Source of the DNA: Gemmatimonadales bacterium
GTDB lineage: Bacteria; Gemmatimonadota; Gemmatimonadetes; Gemmatimonadales; GWC2-71-9
NCBI GenBank assembly: GCA_019637315.1
Contig: JAHBVU010000011.1
Coordinates: 7,242 to 71,241 of the forward strand
DNA length: 64,000 bases
Direction of reading: 5' to 3'
Shown here piece by piece: positions 534-6,093 of the stretch (positions are counted from its first letter, which is position 1; every line of letters starts with the position of its first letter). Position numbers and translations under genes: made by a program. The notes beneath the pieces are model-generated. The model was not told the origin of the DNA and searched no databases. It worked only from the letters and a program-made list of their open reading frames with translations.

Positions 534-1244
534 TCAGTACCTCGGCCGGTGCCGGCCGGTTCGGGAGTCGAGATAGAGGGTATCGCGGCCGAGCGGGACA
601 TTCCAGTACCACTCGCTGTTCGGGTCGATCGGGTCGAGGGCCCGCGCCGTGACCCACCAGGTCCGGCCGACCAGCCGAATCGACGACCAGCCTCCCGCGT
701 TCGTGGTGTCGGCAAAGGGGCGGGCGAAAAAACCGCGGCCGGCGTTGCGCGCTAATCGCCGGAACTCGCGATAGGTGGTATCTTCCCACTGTCGGCTGTC
801 ATCCCTCAAGCGGGCAATGACGGGTCCGACGCTGTCGCGTACGGCGTCCAGCGCCGCTCGTGTTGTGGCAAGTTCGTGATCGATTCGGGTGGCCGAGTCA
901 GCCAGTGCCCGAACCTCCGCATCGTCTGCGCCGCGGACCGCGAGCAGACTGTCCCGTAGCCGTTGCGTGGTCCGCGCTCGTTCACTGGCGCGGACATAGG
1001 CCGCGTACGGCGTCCGAAACAGCCGAAACAGACTGTCGAGTTCCTCCGTATGAGGACGCGGCTCGGCCTGCTCCTCCAAATCAGCGAGGATCCGGTCGCG
1101 GTCGTATGGCAGGAAGGTAACGACGACCCCGGCAGCTGGGGTGTCGACACCATCGAGGTCGGGAACGGACACGCGCACGGTGGTGTCAGGCCGGCCACAC
1201 GCGGCAACGAAGAGGCATGACGCGACGAATGCGGCTCGGGACAC
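534..1244 (-). CDS. hypothetical lipoprotein (signal peptide with lipobox FVAAC-G)
   Basis: 236-aa ORF. The N-terminus MSRAAFVASCLFVAACGRPD has a signal peptide and lipobox. Its stop lies 2 nt upstream of the DsbA-like start at 531. No recognisable catalytic motifs. Confidence 0.5.
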   Translation of the reverse strand: MSRAAFVASCLFVAACGRPDTTVRVSVPDLDGVDTPAAGVVVTFLPYDRDRILADLEEQAEPRPHTEELDSLFRLFRTPYAAYVRASERARTTQRLRDSLLAVRGADDAEVRALADSATRIDHELATTRAALDAVRDSVGPVIARLRDDSRQWEDTTYREFRRLARNAGRGFFARPFADTTNAGGWSSIRLVGRTWWVTARALDPIDPNSEWYWNVPLGRDTLYLDSRTGRHRPRY

Positions 1245-2131
1245 GCGGGAAAGTTAGCCTGATACTGGGCCTGCTCCAATCCGTTGCAGGTGGAGCGGTG
1301 GCGCAGCGTGCCTCGATCGAGTCGCTGTTTCCGCCGTCGCCATCAGGCTATGTCGTCGACGAGGCCCGGATCATTCCCACCGATCGCTCGGCGAGCATCG
1401 CGGCCCGGATCGATCTCTTACGTCAGCGGACCGGCGCCGAGATCGCGGTCGTAACGCTGCCGACCCTCGGGAGTTACGAGCCAGTCGATGTTGCCGTGGC
1501 CATCGGCCGCACCTGGAAGGTCGGCGCGGCGGCTGAAATCGGCGACGCCCGCCGCAACGCCGGCGTCGTGATGCTGATCGTGCCGAGGACCGATTCCACC
1601 GCCGGCCGGATCTTCATCGCGACGGGTCGCGGTGTCGAGGGCTTTGTGACGGATGCGGTTGCCGGCCGGATTCGCGATCGGATGCGGCCGCTGCTGTCGG
1701 CGGGCGAGTACGGGGCCGGGATCGAGCGTGGGGTGACGGATCTGGCCGCGGTCATCGCGAGCGGCTTTGGGGTGAACGACACGAGTCTCGTGGGCGCAGA
1801 TCGTTCGATCTTTCAGCGAGACGACCGGATCATTCCCGGCGAGGCCGTCGGGATCATCATCGCCGGTGTGATCATCCTGATCGTGATGGCGATTGCGATT
1901 TCGCGCGGGGGCGGTGGCGGTCCAGGCTCGGGGCGCGGGGGGCGTTACGGTCCGAGGCGGGGCCGCAACGATGACCTGGCCTATTGGCTTGGTGCGGTGC
2001 TGGGCAGCCAGATGGGGCGCCGGTCCGGCGGCGGTTGGGGCGGAGGCAGCTGGGGTGGCGGTGGCGGCGGGTTTGGCGGCTTCGGTGGCGGCGGCGGGTT
2101 CAGCGGTGGTGGCGCGGGAGGGAATTTCTGA
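1217..2131 (+). CDS. TPM-domain (TLP18.3/Psb32/MOLO-1, YgcG-like) protein with a C-terminal TM helix and a Gly-rich tail
   Basis: 304 aa. Signal-peptide-like N-terminus, a TPM-like core (VVDEARIIPTDRSASIAARIDLLRQRTGAEIAVVTLPTLGSYEP...GVVMLIVPRTDS...IFIATGRGVEG...AGRIRDRM), a hydrophobic segment IIIAGVIILIVMAIAI, then a GGGWGGGSWGGGGGGFGGFGGGGGF tail. The start is uncertain: the ATG at 1217 (or 1229) overlaps the divergent lipoprotein start at 1244. Confidence 0.8.
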   Translation: MTRRMRLGTRGKVSLILGLLQSVAGGAVAQRASIESLFPPSPSGYVVDEARIIPTDRSASIAARIDLLRQRTGAEIAVVTLPTLGSYEPVDVAVAIGRTWKVGAAAEIGDARRNAGVVMLIVPRTDSTAGRIFIATGRGVEGFVTDAVAGRIRDRMRPLLSAGEYGAGIERGVTDLAAVIASGFGVNDTSLVGADRSIFQRDDRIIPGEAVGIIIAGVIILIVMAIAISRGGGGGPGSGRGGRYGPRRGRNDDLAYWLGAVLGSQMGRRSGGGWGGGSWGGGGGGFGGFGGGGGFSGGGAGGNF

Positions 2132-2853
2132 TGCGGCCAGATGTCAGCGTGATCATCGACAAAGTCGGCGTCAGCGTAAGCGAGTCGTTAGGCGCGACCG
2201 CCTCGGCCGTGCTGTACGGCTCCGCCGCCCGTGGTGAGCATCTCGACGACTATTCGGATATCAATGTGTTGCTGGTAACGCAGTCGCTCGAGCCGTTGGT
2301 GCTCCAGCGCCTGCGAGCGGCAATCGAACCGCTCCGGGCCCATTCCCGGGTTCCGCCGTTGATTTTTACGTTCGACGAATGGCGCCGTTCGGCCGACGTC
2401 TTCCCGATCGAGATCGTCGACATGCAGGTGGCTCGTCGCATCCTGGCCGGGGCTGATCCGCTGGAGCGGATGGTGGTCGCCCCTGCCGATCTCCGGCGGG
2501 CGCTCGAACGCGAGTTTCGTGGTAAGCTGCTGCGATTGCGCCAGGCGTATGCCTTGCTGGACGATCAGCCGGCTCTTCTGGCGGAAACGGTGGTGCGCAG
2601 CCTCTCCGTGCTGGGGGTGCTCTTTCGTGCCACCCTCGTGCTTGCCGATGGCGGAGCTCCCATCGCAACGCCGGAGACGATCGAGCGGGCGGCGACCGTG
2701 ATCGGTTTCGACGCCGAACCGGTGCTGTCGATCTATCAGGAGCGCGGGATCAATCGGCCCGCGGTTGGGCGCAGCACGACCGAACAGTACCTTATGGCGG
2801 TCGATCGCGCCGTGCAGTTCATCGATCAATTTCATCTCGGAGGGACCCCGTAA
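2131..2853 (+). CDS. nucleotidyltransferase-domain protein (Pol-beta/KNTase-like NTase with a C-terminal helical extension)
   Basis: The ATG at 2131 overlaps the TGA of the TPM gene (TGATG). The N-terminus carries the minimal NTase motif YGSAARGEHLDDYSDINVLLV (GS...D.D). It is followed by a ~140-aa helical region, giving KNTase-like two-domain organisation. The ORF-track entry 1984..2853 is a 5' extension that overlaps the TPM gene. Confidence 0.65.
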   Translation: MRPDVSVIIDKVGVSVSESLGATASAVLYGSAARGEHLDDYSDINVLLVTQSLEPLVLQRLRAAIEPLRAHSRVPPLIFTFDEWRRSADVFPIEIVDMQVARRILAGADPLERMVVAPADLRRALEREFRGKLLRLRQAYALLDDQPALLAETVVRSLSVLGVLFRATLVLADGGAPIATPETIERAATVIGFDAEPVLSIYQERGINRPAVGRSTTEQYLMAVDRAVQFIDQFHLGGTP

Positions 2854-3419
2854 TGCTTGCCGTGATTCGCCCCATTGCGTTGGCTGCGCTCGTGATCGCC
2901 GCCGGAACCGGGTGCGGGTACAATCAGATCCAGGCCAAGGACGAGGGCGTCAACAAGGCGCTCGGCGACGTCCAGGCGCAGCTGCAGCGGCGGGCCGACC
3001 TGATTCCCAACCTCGTCGAAGTCGTCCGCGGCGTTGCCAGGCAGGAATCGACCATTTTCATCTCGGTCGCCGAGGCGCGTTCGCGGCTGGCGGGTGCGGT
3101 GCAGTCGGGCAGCGTGGCCGAGATGGCCCAGGCCGACGAAGCGCTTCGCCAGCCGCTCGGGCGGTTGCTGGCGCTGGTGGAGAACTACCCCGAGCTCAAG
3201 TCGAACCAGAACTACCTCGACCTCCAGAGCCAGCTCGAAGGCACCGAGAATCGCATCTCGGTAGCCAGGCAGGACTATAACGGTGCGGTCCGCGACTTCA
3301 ATACTTACATCCGGACGTTTCCGTACAACCTGACGGCCAAAATTTTTGGCGCGGGAACGGCAAAACCGTACTTCGAGGCGAGCCCGGGCGCTGAAGCGGC
3401 GCCGCAGGTCAAGTTCTAG
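2853..3419 (+). CDS. lemA: LemA family protein
   Basis: 188 aa with an N-terminal TM helix. The LemA hallmark NQIQAKDEGVNKALGDVQAQLQRRADLIPNLVEVVRG...ENYPELKSNQNYLDLQSQLEGTENRISVAR is present. The ATG at 2853 overlaps the TAA of the NTase gene (TAATG). Confidence 0.85.
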   Translation: MLAVIRPIALAALVIAAGTGCGYNQIQAKDEGVNKALGDVQAQLQRRADLIPNLVEVVRGVARQESTIFISVAEARSRLAGAVQSGSVAEMAQADEALRQPLGRLLALVENYPELKSNQNYLDLQSQLEGTENRISVARQDYNGAVRDFNTYIRTFPYNLTAKIFGAGTAKPYFEASPGAEAAPQVKF

Positions 3420-3426
3420 CGGGAGG

Positions 3427-4347
3427 TCAGTCGGTGACGACGTCCGGGAGCAGGTAGCGCAGCGGATTGACCGGACGGCCGTTGACGTGGACTTCGTAGT
3501 GCAGATGGGGGCTGGTGGAGAGACCGCTATTGCCGACCAGGGCAATCCGCTGGCCCCGTTCGACCCGATCGCCCGCCCTCACGAGCAGCCGTGAGGCGTG
3601 GGCAAACTTGGTGACGATACCGTAGCCGTGATCGATCACCACCATGTTGCCGTAGCCCGTTTCCCATCCCGAAAACGTGACACGCCCGCGTGCCGGCGCT
3701 TCGATCGGCGTTCCCATCGGTGCGGTGATGTCGACGCCCTCGTGCGGCCGTGCGACGTGGAGAATCGGGTGCTCGCGCATGGCGGCAAAGGCGCTGCTCA
3801 GCCAGCCCGTCGTCGGCATGATCGACGGTGTGGCGGCCAGTCGGTCGGTGTGCGAAGCCAGGCTGTCGGCCGCCTCACGGAATGAACGCGTCAGCAAGTT
3901 GGCCCGTCGGATCAGGGCGTCGACATCGACTCGGACCGCGCTGGCGCGCAACTCGAGCTCGCCGGGTGCTTCCGTCCGATTGTCCAGCGGGGCCGGGCCA
4001 CCGATACCGGCGGCGTGCACCTGCGGGTCGATCGGCTGCAGGTTGGCGAGCAGCCGGATCCGGTTGTCGTGGATTTCGAGCGCGGAAATCGAGTCGGTCA
4101 GCCGAGCCAGCCGGCCCTGAATGGTCTGGAGGTCTGCCGCCAGCCGCGTATTCTCTTCGGCGATGGCCTGGGCCTGATACATGTTGATCGAGCGGGCCAC
4201 CGTTCCGTAGCCCAGGAAGAGCGCGACGATCACCGCACCCAGCGCGAGAATGGCGCCGAGCTTCACGGCAGTTTCGGTAATCTCGATGACGCGAGAGGTA
4301 CTCGAACCCTGCGGAACAACGATGACAGTCCAGCGGCTCTTCTTCAT
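3427..4347 (-). CDS. M23 family (LytM-type) metallo-endopeptidase with an N-terminal TM helix and a coiled-coil region
   Basis: The C-terminal catalytic domain has intact zinc motifs: HEGVDITAP (HxxxD) and ...GNSGLSTSPHLHYEVHVNG (HxH). The start is taken as the ATG at 4347 (MKKSRWTVIVV); the longer ORF-track N-terminus has no support. Confidence 0.8.
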   Translation of the reverse strand: MKKSRWTVIVVPQGSSTSRVIEITETAVKLGAILALGAVIVALFLGYGTVARSINMYQAQAIAEENTRLAADLQTIQGRLARLTDSISALEIHDNRIRLLANLQPIDPQVHAAGIGGPAPLDNRTEAPGELELRASAVRVDVDALIRRANLLTRSFREAADSLASHTDRLAATPSIMPTTGWLSSAFAAMREHPILHVARPHEGVDITAPMGTPIEAPARGRVTFSGWETGYGNMVVIDHGYGIVTKFAHASRLLVRAGDRVERGQRIALVGNSGLSTSPHLHYEVHVNGRPVNPLRYLLPDVVTD

Positions 4348-4511
4348 GCCCACCTGGCACGGACTTCGGCCTGCCGTTGGTGCTGACGGCTGACGTCCGG
4401 CGCGATACGATGTGACGGGCTGTGCGCCCTGCGATACCTGGCAGAACCAGGCCCCCGGCGGCGTCCGTCCGCAAGTTTCCCGCCTGACGGAGCCGACCAA
4501 TTATGCGTCTC

Positions 4512-4540
4512 GATCGCAGCCCTGTCAAGCGGCTGCGATC
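4512..4540. terminator. GC-rich inverted repeat (10-bp stem gatcgcagcc / ggctgcgatc, 9-nt loop), 30 nt downstream of the metG stop on the minus strand
   Basis: A perfect inverted repeat read directly from the DNA. The downstream tract is not U-rich, so this is hairpin-only evidence. Confidence 0.3.
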
Positions 4541-4569
4541 GACGAGTTATCGTGTTGCCCCGCAACGAG

Positions 4570-6093
4570 TTACGCGACGGTCTGAGTCGGGGGTTTTGGG
4601 AACAGGATGTCGGGACGTGCAACAGTCAGTCCGGTGCCCGACGCGTTCTGCAGCAGGGCCCAGGCTTCCCGGTCGATCGGGGTGGAGTATCCCAGGGCAG
4701 TCCAAATTTTCGCGGATCGGTCCGGCAGGTACGGCGAGACGAGCACGGCCAGCCGGGTCAGCACTCGGTGGAGTGCGGCGAGCACGGTATCGAGCTCCTG
4801 GTCGGCCCGTGCTTTGGCCAGACTCCACGGGGCAGACCGGGTGATGTACAGGTCGGCCGCGGTGACGAGTCCCCAGGCTGCTTCCAGCGCCCCTTTGAGA
4901 TCGTAGCCATCCAGGGCCGACACATAGGCGGGGATGAGTTCCTCCCGCGCCGTTCTGTCGAGCACGGTGTCCGGACCGGCCGGTACCAGGCCGCCCCGGT
5001 ACCGCTCGATCATGGCGAGGGATCGGGCAGTCAGGTTGCCGATTCCGTCGGCCAGGTCCGAGCCATAGCGCGCATCGAACCGGTCCCAGGTAAAGTCGCC
5101 GTCGCTCTCGAAGCCGACTTCCCGCATCAGGAAGTAGCGGAGCGCGTCGGAACCGTGGCGGTTGATGGCGTCGTCGAGATTGACCGCCGTGCCCGCTGTT
5201 TTGGACATCTTGGCGCCGAGCCATTGGACGTATCCGTGCGCCCAGACGGCCCGAGGCGGGGCAATCCCGGCAGCCAGGCACATGGCTGGCCAGAGCACGC
5301 AATGGAATCGGGAAATGCCTTTGCCAATGATATGAAGATCGGCTGGCCAGAGGCGCTGATAGCCCTCGTCCGGAAATCCGGTGGCCGAGAGGTAGTTGAT
5401 GACGGCGTCGAACCAGACATAAATGGTATGCTGGCTGCTCTCGGGAAACGGAATGCCCCACGGCAATCGTGACCGTGAAATCGAGATGTCCTGCAGGCCG
5501 CTTTCGAGCAGCCGCAACATCTCGTTCCGCCGGATCGCGGGTTCGACGCTCAGCTCGCCTGAGTTGATCATGCCGAGCAAGCGATCGCCATAGGCGGAGA
5601 GGCGGAAGAAGTGGTTCTGCTCCCGGGTTGGGACCAGCGCGAGCGTCGGGTGCTCGGCGCACCGGCCGTCGGTGACCTGGCTCTCGGTCTTGAATTCCTC
5701 GCATCCGGTGCAGTAGAGGCCTTCGTAGTCGGCGAGGTAGACGTCGGCGGGGCTCCGCTCCTGGATCCGGCGGAGCAGCTCCTCGACGGCGCGCACGTGC
5801 CGTGCTTCGGTGGTGCGGATCCAATCGTCGTTGCTGCAGTCGAGCCGCTGCCAGAAGCGGGCAAACCTCTCCGCCATGCCGTCGACCCAGGCCTGGGGCG
5901 TGACGCCGTGGCGTTCGGACATCTGGATCACGCTCTGCGAGTTCTCGTCCATTCCCATCAGGAAATGCACGTCGTCACCCCGCAGTCGTCGGTAGCGCGC
6001 AATGACGTCGGCGCCGACCTTCTCGAGCGCGTGCCCGAGGTGCGGGTCGCCGTTGGAGTAGTCGATGGCGGTGGTGAGGTAGAACTTGGCCAC
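4570..6093 (-). CDS. metG: methionine--tRNA ligase, short form without the C-terminal tRNA-binding domain
   Basis: 507 aa. Class-I aaRS motifs DPHLGHALE (HIGH-like) and GAKMSKTAG (KMSKS-like). Full-length collinearity with MetRS, including the zinc knuckle CTGCEEF. Confidence 0.95.
   Translation of the reverse strand: MAKFYLTTAIDYSNGDPHLGHALEKVGADVIARYRRLRGDDVHFLMGMDENSQSVIQMSERHGVTPQAWVDGMAERFARFWQRLDCSNDDWIRTTEARHVRAVEELLRRIQERSPADVYLADYEGLYCTGCEEFKTESQVTDGRCAEHPTLALVPTREQNHFFRLSAYGDRLLGMINSGELSVEPAIRRNEMLRLLESGLQDISISRSRLPWGIPFPESSQHTIYVWFDAVINYLSATGFPDEGYQRLWPADLHIIGKGISRFHCVLWPAMCLAAGIAPPRAVWAHGYVQWLGAKMSKTAGTAVNLDDAINRHGSDALRYFLMREVGFESDGDFTWDRFDARYGSDLADGIGNLTARSLAMIERYRGGLVPAGPDTVLDRTAREELIPAYVSALDGYDLKGALEAAWGLVTAADLYITRSAPWSLAKARADQELDTVLAALHRVLTRLAVLVSPYLPDRSAKIWTALGYSTPIDREAWALLQNASGTGLTVARPDILFPKPPTQTVA

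Follow-up and report, generated by a model that had tools for sequence, protein, structure and literature searches.

Introduction

LemA and TPM-domain proteins occur very widely in the bacterial envelope, but no function has been established for them in bacteria; in many genomes, they are paired. Nucleotidyltransferase (NTase) domains of the Pol-beta fold are also found next to membrane proteins, as in the Hailong system, where the NTase HalB synthesises oligodeoxyadenylates and is paired with the membrane effector HalA. Other proteins of this fold, such as MiD51, the DZF domains of NF45/NF90 and OASL, are pseudo-enzymes with degenerate carboxylates that serve as nucleotide-binding adaptors; MiD51 has a nucleotide-dependent adaptor role at a membrane. 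Here, a locus of a Gemmatimonadales bacterium is described in which a gene for an NTase-fold protein lies between a TPM and a LemA gene (positions 1217–3419). All positions refer to the window, that is, the whole 64,000-nucleotide stretch of DNA analysed (GenBank assembly GCA_019637315.1, contig JAHBVU010000011.1, positions 7,242 to 71,241, forward strand).

A chaperone or assembly role has been proposed for TPM proteins, and their domains are described as factors that assemble membrane complexes or act on them like chaperones (PMC11237479). On phosphatase or nucleotide-hydrolysing activity of some TPM members, the literature is divided (PMC11237479; PMC13456599). LemA-like domains have been implicated in membrane remodelling or scaffolding (bioRxiv 10.64898/2026.07.15.738315). 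The LemA/TPM literature found gives no function for the pair, and no account in the searchable literature ties LemA, TPM and a nucleotidyltransferase together. Each component is of a known kind: LemA, TPM, and a Pol-beta NTase fold combined with a HEPN-like domain. What appears undescribed, in that literature and in the curated libraries used, is the NTase-like subfamily treated below, with SDxN at its active site, and the seemingly obligate way in which it accompanies TPM and LemA in different phyla.

Results and Discussion

A Conserved TPM/NTase-like/LemA Operon

The window contains one copy of each of the three genes, all on the + strand. Gene 1 (1217–2131) encodes a TPM-domain protein of 304 aa, as judged from the open reading frame (ORF), Pfam PF04536 and hydropathy; gene 2 (2131–2853) encodes, from ATG 2131, a putatively cytoplasmic NTase-fold protein of 240 aa belonging to an uncurated "GS...SDxN" family; and gene 3 (2853–3419) encodes a LemA-family protein of 188 aa. 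As the preliminary description of this DNA had stated, the three are chained by 1-nt stop/start overlaps, TGATG at 2129–2133 and TAATG at 2851–2855, and both the coordinates and the junctions were confirmed. Shine-Dalgarno-like sequences are present 8 nt 5' of ATG 2131 (GGGAGGG, 2116–2122) and 8 nt 5' of ATG 2853 (GGAGGG, 2839–2844). No sigma-70-like promoter was seen within the triad on the + strand, and terminator-like matches within gene 2 were at the level of chance (2 observed, 2.2 expected). As the overlaps, the ribosome-binding-site-like sequences and the lack of internal promoter-like or excess terminator-like sites show, the three ORFs form one translationally coupled operon.

This arrangement is general in the order. 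The TPM and NTase-like genes overlap by 1 nt in 63 of 76 Gemmatimonadales loci, with gaps of at most 11 nt in the remainder; the NTase-like and LemA genes overlap in 38 of 46, and no gap at either junction exceeds 15 nt. In other phyla, the spacers are also short, but vary more. The triad is present in about 80 Gemmatimonadales genomes, and in 83 Gemmatimonadota loci, the order TPM–NTase–LemA was found wherever the contig extends far enough. Gemmatimonadales genomes also keep the flanking genes, upstream those for a divergently encoded lipoprotein and a DsbA-like protein and downstream those for an M23 peptidase, metG, PSP1 and accA, so conserved order inside Gemmatimonadales says little by itself. 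The same triad is, however, present among unrelated flanking genes in Pontiella sulfatireligans (Kiritimatiellota, locus L085, in the order TPM, second TPM, NTase, LemA), in loci L087–L089 on large contigs, in a Planctomycetaceae member (Planctomycetota, L210), in a Deltaproteobacteria metagenome-assembled genome (MAG; L211), in Elusimicrobiota (L212) and in further uncultured lineages, and its conservation therefore goes beyond local synteny.

A sample of 120 loci was collected from metagenome contigs with a degenerate DNA pattern for YGSAA...SDxN...FPIE, which starts with TAC and hence favours GC-rich organisms, and neighbouring genes were scored with purpose-built hidden Markov models (HMMs), by which divergent TPMs may be missed. 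Among the 59 loci with room on both sides, both partners were found in 48, one in 7 and neither in 4; where there was room on one side only, LemA was present in 23 of 28 and TPM in 19 of 21. One subgroup has the genes in the order NTase–TPM–LemA, and a permutation that retains all three argues for functional coupling. The three genes are kept together in many bacterial phyla, and the NTase-like gene is truly embedded in the TPM/LemA module, as the preliminary description had proposed from a single locus.

Fold and Family of the NTase-like Protein

A wrong start at 2131 would have counted against the preliminary description, but more than 100 homologues of 238–240 aa align from Met1, as does the family HMM from its own first position, and GGGAGGG is found 8 nt before this ATG. 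ATG 2131 is therefore the correct start, and the ORF is no out-of-frame artefact. A 289-aa ORF starting at TTG 1984 was rejected as the gene, since its first 49 residues, rich in Arg and Trp, come from reading the sequence for the Gly-rich tail of gene 1 in another frame. A protein with 100% identity, annotated as hypothetical, is present in a Gemmatimonadales MAG. Neither a signal peptide nor a transmembrane helix was seen in the NTase-like protein, and its sole hydrophobic helix is buried in the helical bundle of a confident structural model.

That model, built with AlphaFold2 from 22 homologues (pLDDT 93, pTM 0.89), shows an alpha/beta domain that extends from residue 1 to about residue 110, followed by a bundle of helices (residues 118–233, encoded at 2482–2829). 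NTP_transf_2 (PF01909) matched with E 2.6e-4, a borderline 21.8 bits against a cut-off of 21; the protein thus has both the Pol-beta alpha/beta NTase fold and a score above the Pfam gathering threshold. Foldseek matched the model to ANT(3'')(9), AAD(9), AadA, HalB and KNTase, with E-values of 4e-5 to 1e-3 and TM-scores of about 0.5. The soluble protein thus joins, in one chain, an NTase domain of the Pol-beta type and a helical domain that is HEPN-like and KNTase-C-like, the architecture of KNTase, AadA and HalB, and the KNTase-like helical C-domain of the preliminary description is borne out by the structural matches to ANT, AadA and KNTase. Of the HMM searches that it had proposed, those for TPM_phosphatase and LemA gave clear matches and that for NTP_transf_2 the borderline one above, whereas Pfam found nothing relevant on isolated C-domains, with no match to KNTase_C or NTase_sub_bind. 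An alignment of the C-domain to KNTase or AadA1 was likewise discarded, because hhalign paired only the GS..D region. Near-invariant residues of the C-domain are R122, E126, E128, K132, R137, R166 and D232; no conserved His that could belong to an Rx4-6H nuclease motif was found in the alignments of 22 Gemmatimonadales sequences and of 358 members.

The family is large. Its profile, run against 1.84 billion cluster representatives (50% identity), matched 3,733 clusters at E ≤ 1e-3, 2,622 at E ≤ 1e-10 and 646 at E ≤ 1e-30. Named sources, with taxa as the sources give them, are Gemmatimonadales, Longimicrobiaceae, Acidobacteriota, Pontiella/Pontiellaceae isolates, "Verrucomicrobia bacterium S94", Planctomycetaceae, Elusimicrobiota, a Deltaproteobacteria MAG, KSB1 and Calditrichaeota. 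Members are annotated there as "predicted nucleotidyltransferase" or "hypothetical". Curated coverage amounts to weak NTP_transf_2 matches in 23 of 40 diverse members, and the SDxN subfamily is not covered by any curated family in the libraries used. NCBIfam models scored below threshold (HalB, 19 against 190 bits; MntA, 12.8 against 60), and PADLOC gave only weak NTase-domain matches to candidate models.

Since the highest structural matches are aminoglycoside nucleotidyltransferases (ANTs), gene 2 might be an independent gene riding in the operon, encoding either an ANT-like enzyme acting on a small molecule, e.g., an antibiotic, or a housekeeping NTase. A minority of the family does occur in other contexts: in one clade, the SDxN gene is followed by an M20/M28-type peptidase gene (L102, 3004–4239), and in a low-GC locus, it lies between genes for a Sir2-family protein and a TPR/TonB_C lipoprotein (L095, 1058–4565). 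Yet the triad is found beside different flanking genes in many phyla, persists when its order is permuted and is translationally coupled; identity to the ANT enzymes is only 10–18%, their catalytic residues AadA D49/E87 and KNTase E52 have no match, and the locus belongs to the core chromosome, with conserved synteny, and is no resistance island. A mere co-location is therefore improbable.

The weak similarity of the GS..D region to HalB, MntA and the PADLOC candidate NTase models, the HEPN-like fold of the C-domain and the membrane proteins encoded in the same operon could also point to a conflict system, either a fused MNT-HEPN element resembling a toxin–antitoxin (TA) pair or a Hailong-like defence module in which the NTase product controls a membrane effector. 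This explanation is the least probable of those considered: the NCBIfam scores are far below their cut-offs, the Rx4-6H motif is missing, TPM and LemA have no PADLOC match, and the synteny with metG, accA, PSP1 and the M23 peptidase across the whole order is that of housekeeping genes, unlike mobile defence islands. The preliminary description had also held that this is not a standard HEPN/MNT TA arrangement, and indeed no separate HEPN gene adjoins the NTase-like gene, but the C-domain is itself HEPN-like in fold.

Active-Site Motif

The motif G30-S31...S42-D43-I44-N45 is encoded at 2218–2265 (+), with the Asn codon AAT at 2263–2265. Its register was obtained by phmmer (HalB), the family profile (AF0614, CdnD, MNT) and hhalign (AadA1, KNTase); the KNTase sequence used is identical to 6un8_A. 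G30-S31 corresponds to hG[GS] at the end of beta1 (L28-Y29-G30-S31) and S42-D43-I44-N45 to the "SD[IV]D" position, so that N45 lies opposite the second Asp/Glu of HalB, AF0614, CdnD, MNT, AadA1 and KNTase. In the hhalign comparisons, with probabilities of 7–67%, it faces E52 of KNTase and D49 of AadA1. The canonical [DE]h[DE]h carboxylate pair on beta2 is absent, being replaced by DxN. The preliminary description had read this site as a GS...DxD motif: its Pol-beta fold and GS loop stand, but its DxD is D43-I44-N45, "DDYSD" is not the catalytic pair, and the Asp pair whose lack on alignment it had itself named as counting against its reading is missing. There is also no conserved acid on beta3 (P76-L77-I-F-T80), at the position of AadA E87, and the "FEF" of AF0614 lies in an insertion relative to the SDxN family.

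The replacement is not peculiar to this genome. In 358 full-length members from several phyla, G30 is conserved in 100%, S31 in 99%, D43 in 97% and N45 in 98%; N45 is invariant in the 22 Gemmatimonadales sequences, and SDxN was found in 242 of 267 collected proteins. A few relatives in that collection lack D43 as well (variants SNIN, SRYD, SHHN and QEVN). Beyond the motif, D89, E94, D97, G107, D109, R122, E126, E128, K132, R137, R166 and D232 are near-invariant across phyla, while E83 is invariant only in the Gemmatimonadales alignment and falls below the 80% conservation threshold across the 358 sequences. From these alignments, an Asn in place of the second metal-binding carboxylate is the hallmark of the family. 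Since the other residues are near-invariant across phyla, the site is read as one maintained by selection, not as a decaying one, and the protein is clearly functional in some capacity.

One such capacity would be that of an active, non-canonical NTase, in which D43 and N45 together with D89/E94/D97 or E126/E128 transfer a nucleotide and thereby regulate TPM/LemA. Candidate acceptors would be Ser or Tyr residues of the Gly-rich TPM tail, another envelope precursor or a small molecule. The strict conservation of GS, D43, N45 and the acidic/basic set across phyla suggests a maintained active or binding site, the best structural matches (ANT(3'')(9), AadA, KNTase, HalB, DrrA and GlnE) are all active NTases, and the gene is linked in an operon to those of membrane proteins. 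In addition, E128-F-R-G-K132 may resemble the general-base/Lys motif of KNTase, E145-Y-A-G-K149, a comparison of our own and a tentative lead. On the other hand, 98% of members have Asn for the second metal carboxylate, beta3 carries no conserved h[DE]h acid, some relatives lack D43 too, no acceptor could be identified, and hhalign leaves the C-domain unaligned to KNTase and AadA. Taken together, an active enzyme of this kind seems rather unlikely, albeit clearly more probable than either a co-located gene or a conflict system.

TPM and LemA Proteins and Their Predicted Topology

The TPM protein matched TPM_phosphatase (PF04536) with E 1.7e-23 and 83.4 bits against a cut-off of 22.1, over profile positions 1–124 of 125, and its TPM domain spans residues 46–178 (1352–1750). 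It is preceded by a predicted signal peptide (MTRRMRLGTRGKVSLILGLLQSVAGGAVA|Q; 1217–1306), assigned by eye from a positive n-region, a hydrophobic core and AVA-Q. The C-terminal transmembrane helix and long Gly-rich tail given in the preliminary description were both recovered: a strong helix at about A210–S229 (1844–1903; maximum of 3.19 in a 19-residue Kyte–Doolittle window) is followed by an Arg-/Gly-rich tail, R230–F304 (1904–2128), of 75 residues with about 50% Gly and Arg residues near the membrane, ending in ...GGGGFSGGGAGGNF. By the positive-inside rule, this tail would be cytoplasmic. Tails of the same type, with GGGxSGGG[AG]GG[RSN][FW] at the end, occur in the TPM partners of all phyla examined.

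In the GC-rich region encoding the tail (1904–2128), a second frame is open and gives Arg/Trp-rich pseudo-ORFs (1984–2130). This alternative frame has led to spurious N-extended or "fused" protein models in public databases (P0150, P0251, P0152). Candidate Rosetta-stone fusions, P0251 (TPM–NTase) and P0265, P0145 and P0150 (NTase–LemA or N-extended), were rejected as assembly or gene-calling artefacts because their linkers are either an Arg-rich out-of-frame translation of the Gly tail or a frameshifted LemA. In the Pontiella sulfatireligans locus L085, tandem TPM genes (3304–4098 and 4149–4907) lie 5' of the NTase-like gene; the second has no precomputed Pfam match but scores E 2.7e-40 with TPM_phosphatase, so the module can hold more than one TPM paralogue.

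The LemA protein matched PF04011 with E 2.1e-54 and 183.9 bits against a cut-off of 26.2, over profile positions 2–149 of 149 (residues 37–188). Its N-terminal hydrophobic segment, taken earlier for a plain transmembrane helix, was confirmed as such a segment by hydropathy, but it is a signal/anchor (2853–2915) with a lipobox-like A-G-T-G-C21 at its end, and the protein is probably a lipoprotein. The lipobox-like ..[ATG]GC-GYN motif is present in 44 of 46 Gemmatimonadales LemA partners; outside the order, about half of the partners have a lipobox-like Cys and the remainder an uncleaved anchor. With either type of N-terminus, the LemA domain would lie outside the cytoplasm.

Proposed Role of the NTase-like Protein

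The GS loop, the first Asp and the basic/acidic helix are kept, whereas two of the three canonical metal ligands appear to be lost. The NTase-like protein is therefore tentatively seen as a subunit of an envelope-spanning TPM/LemA module that binds nucleotides and has a regulatory or adaptor role, as a pseudo-enzyme or a very non-canonical enzyme. This reading is favoured over classical nucleotidyl transfer, though with somewhat less confidence than would make it probable. The nucleotidylation-based regulation suggested in the preliminary description is possible but not favoured, as a non-canonical or non-catalytic nucleotide-binding subunit fits the sequence better.

As predicted from the topology above, the TPM and LemA domains would be on the periplasmic side, and the only cytoplasmic parts of the system would be the NTase-like protein and the Gly-rich TPM tail. 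For that reason, the NTase-like protein most likely docks on this tail or acts through it. It could in this way couple the nucleotide status of the cytoplasm to the chaperone/assembly or membrane-remodelling function of TPM/LemA. In its full form, this proposal makes the SDxN protein a dedicated nucleotide-sensing subunit, pseudo-enzyme or single-metal, of an unrecognised tripartite TPM/NTase-like/LemA machine, acting via the TPM tail on the assembly or remodelling of periplasmic complexes; such a detailed mechanism is more speculative than the regulatory role itself.

Several points weigh against a regulatory or adaptor subunit. N45 is under stricter conservation than one would expect if the catalytic site had decayed, Asn is still able to coordinate Mg2+, and N45, the invariant D89/E94/D97 and E126/E128/K132, with the KNTase-like motif noted above, could form a specialised, active catalytic centre. 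About 10–20% of SDxN family members do not adjoin TPM/LemA, and physical interaction among the three proteins is putative. Moreover, similar Gly-rich tails may also occur on TPM proteins without an NTase-like partner, in which case the tail could not be a dedicated docking site.

The finding does not solve the function of LemA and TPM, but it supplies a tractable third component with an unusual, conserved active-site variant. A conserved cytoplasmic partner is an experimental handle on the module and suggests that it signals across the membrane. As the triad is present in cultured organisms, e.g., Pontiella sulfatireligans, the hypotheses are testable. A large Pol-beta-fold family (about 3,700 clusters) with an Asp-to-Asn change at the metal position is also of interest for NTase enzymology and pseudo-enzyme evolution, and the label "nucleotidyltransferase domain-containing protein" could be replaced by a more specific one.

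Neighbouring Genes

Upstream of the triad lies a divergent gene (534–1244, −), whose product of 236 aa starts like a lipoprotein (MSRAAFVASCLFVAAC), belongs to no Pfam family and is kept upstream in Gemmatimonadales. The 5' end of this gene shares 28 nt with that of the TPM gene, so that each promoter must sit inside the coding sequence of the opposite gene; the divergent spacer is likewise zero or near zero in loci L001–L003. Downstream, only 7 nt separate the LemA stop codon (3417–3419) from that of a convergent M23-peptidase gene (3427–4500, −). No terminator-like structure was detected between the two (3419–3427), and a sequence at 4528–4500 strongly matches a sigma-70-like promoter (11/12) for the M23 gene. 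This convergence is kept across Gemmatimonadales and in locus L213.

Elsewhere, the permuted subgroup (L143, 3049–3816, −; L090, L125 and L147) has a gene for a tandem PilZ protein directly upstream on the same strand (Pfam PilZ, E 4.5e-25, in two stretches), which hints at a link to cyclic di-GMP for this variant. A radical-SAM gene lies just 5' of the TPM gene in three unrelated lineages, in L085 of Pontiella (2262–3239), in L088 (1903–3753) and in L211 of the Deltaproteobacteria MAG (1798–3156), and a divergent gene for a 93-aa PF04248 (NTP_transf_9) protein adjoins the triad in L087–L089; the radical-SAM and PF04248 neighbours may be coincidence.

Comparison with Known Systems

The two-domain layout of NTase plus helical C-domain is common to KNTase/ANT(4')-Ia, AadA/ANT(3'')(9) and the NTase-like protein. 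At 10–18% identity, however, Asn replaces AadA D49 and KNTase E52, the NTase-like protein has no conserved acid at the position of AadA E87 on beta3, and neither the catalytic residues of KNTase (D50/E52/E145) and AadA (D47/D49/E87) nor sequence membership of these families was found. Aminoglycoside NTases are resistance genes, whereas the NTase-like gene is chromosomal, lies in a core operon with envelope proteins and has no membership in NCBIfam or in the ANT/KNTase families of Pfam.

With the HEPN/MNT (type VII) TA systems and HI0073/HI0074, the likeness is in both domains: the NTase domain resembles MNT, AF0614 and HI0073, and the C-domain resembles HEPN and HI0074-type substrate-binding domains. 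These are separate genes in the known systems but a single fused chain here; MNT has DxD instead of DxN, and Rx4-6H is absent from the NTase-like protein. The partner in HEPN/MNT is a toxin, while the partners here are TPM and LemA.

HalB of Hailong is the best single-sequence match in the PDB and NCBIfam over the GS..D region, and it shares a two-domain NTase of similar size and adjoining membrane-protein genes. It differs in having D21/D23 at the active site, and the 19 bits against 190, the lack of a HalA homologue and the housekeeping synteny set the present locus apart from it; PADLOC gave no system match. The comparison with MiD51, NF45/NF90 and OASL is an analogy only, and the replaced residue is strictly conserved here.

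The remaining comparison is with the LemA–TPM modules themselves. A membrane-anchored TPM protein with a low-complexity tail, as in the present triad, is found in such modules, e.g., YdjH of the B. subtilis pspA-ydjGHI operon. To these two components, the triad adds a third, cytoplasmic NTase-fold gene, in the order TPM–NTase–LemA or NTase–TPM–LemA, which is conserved together with them.

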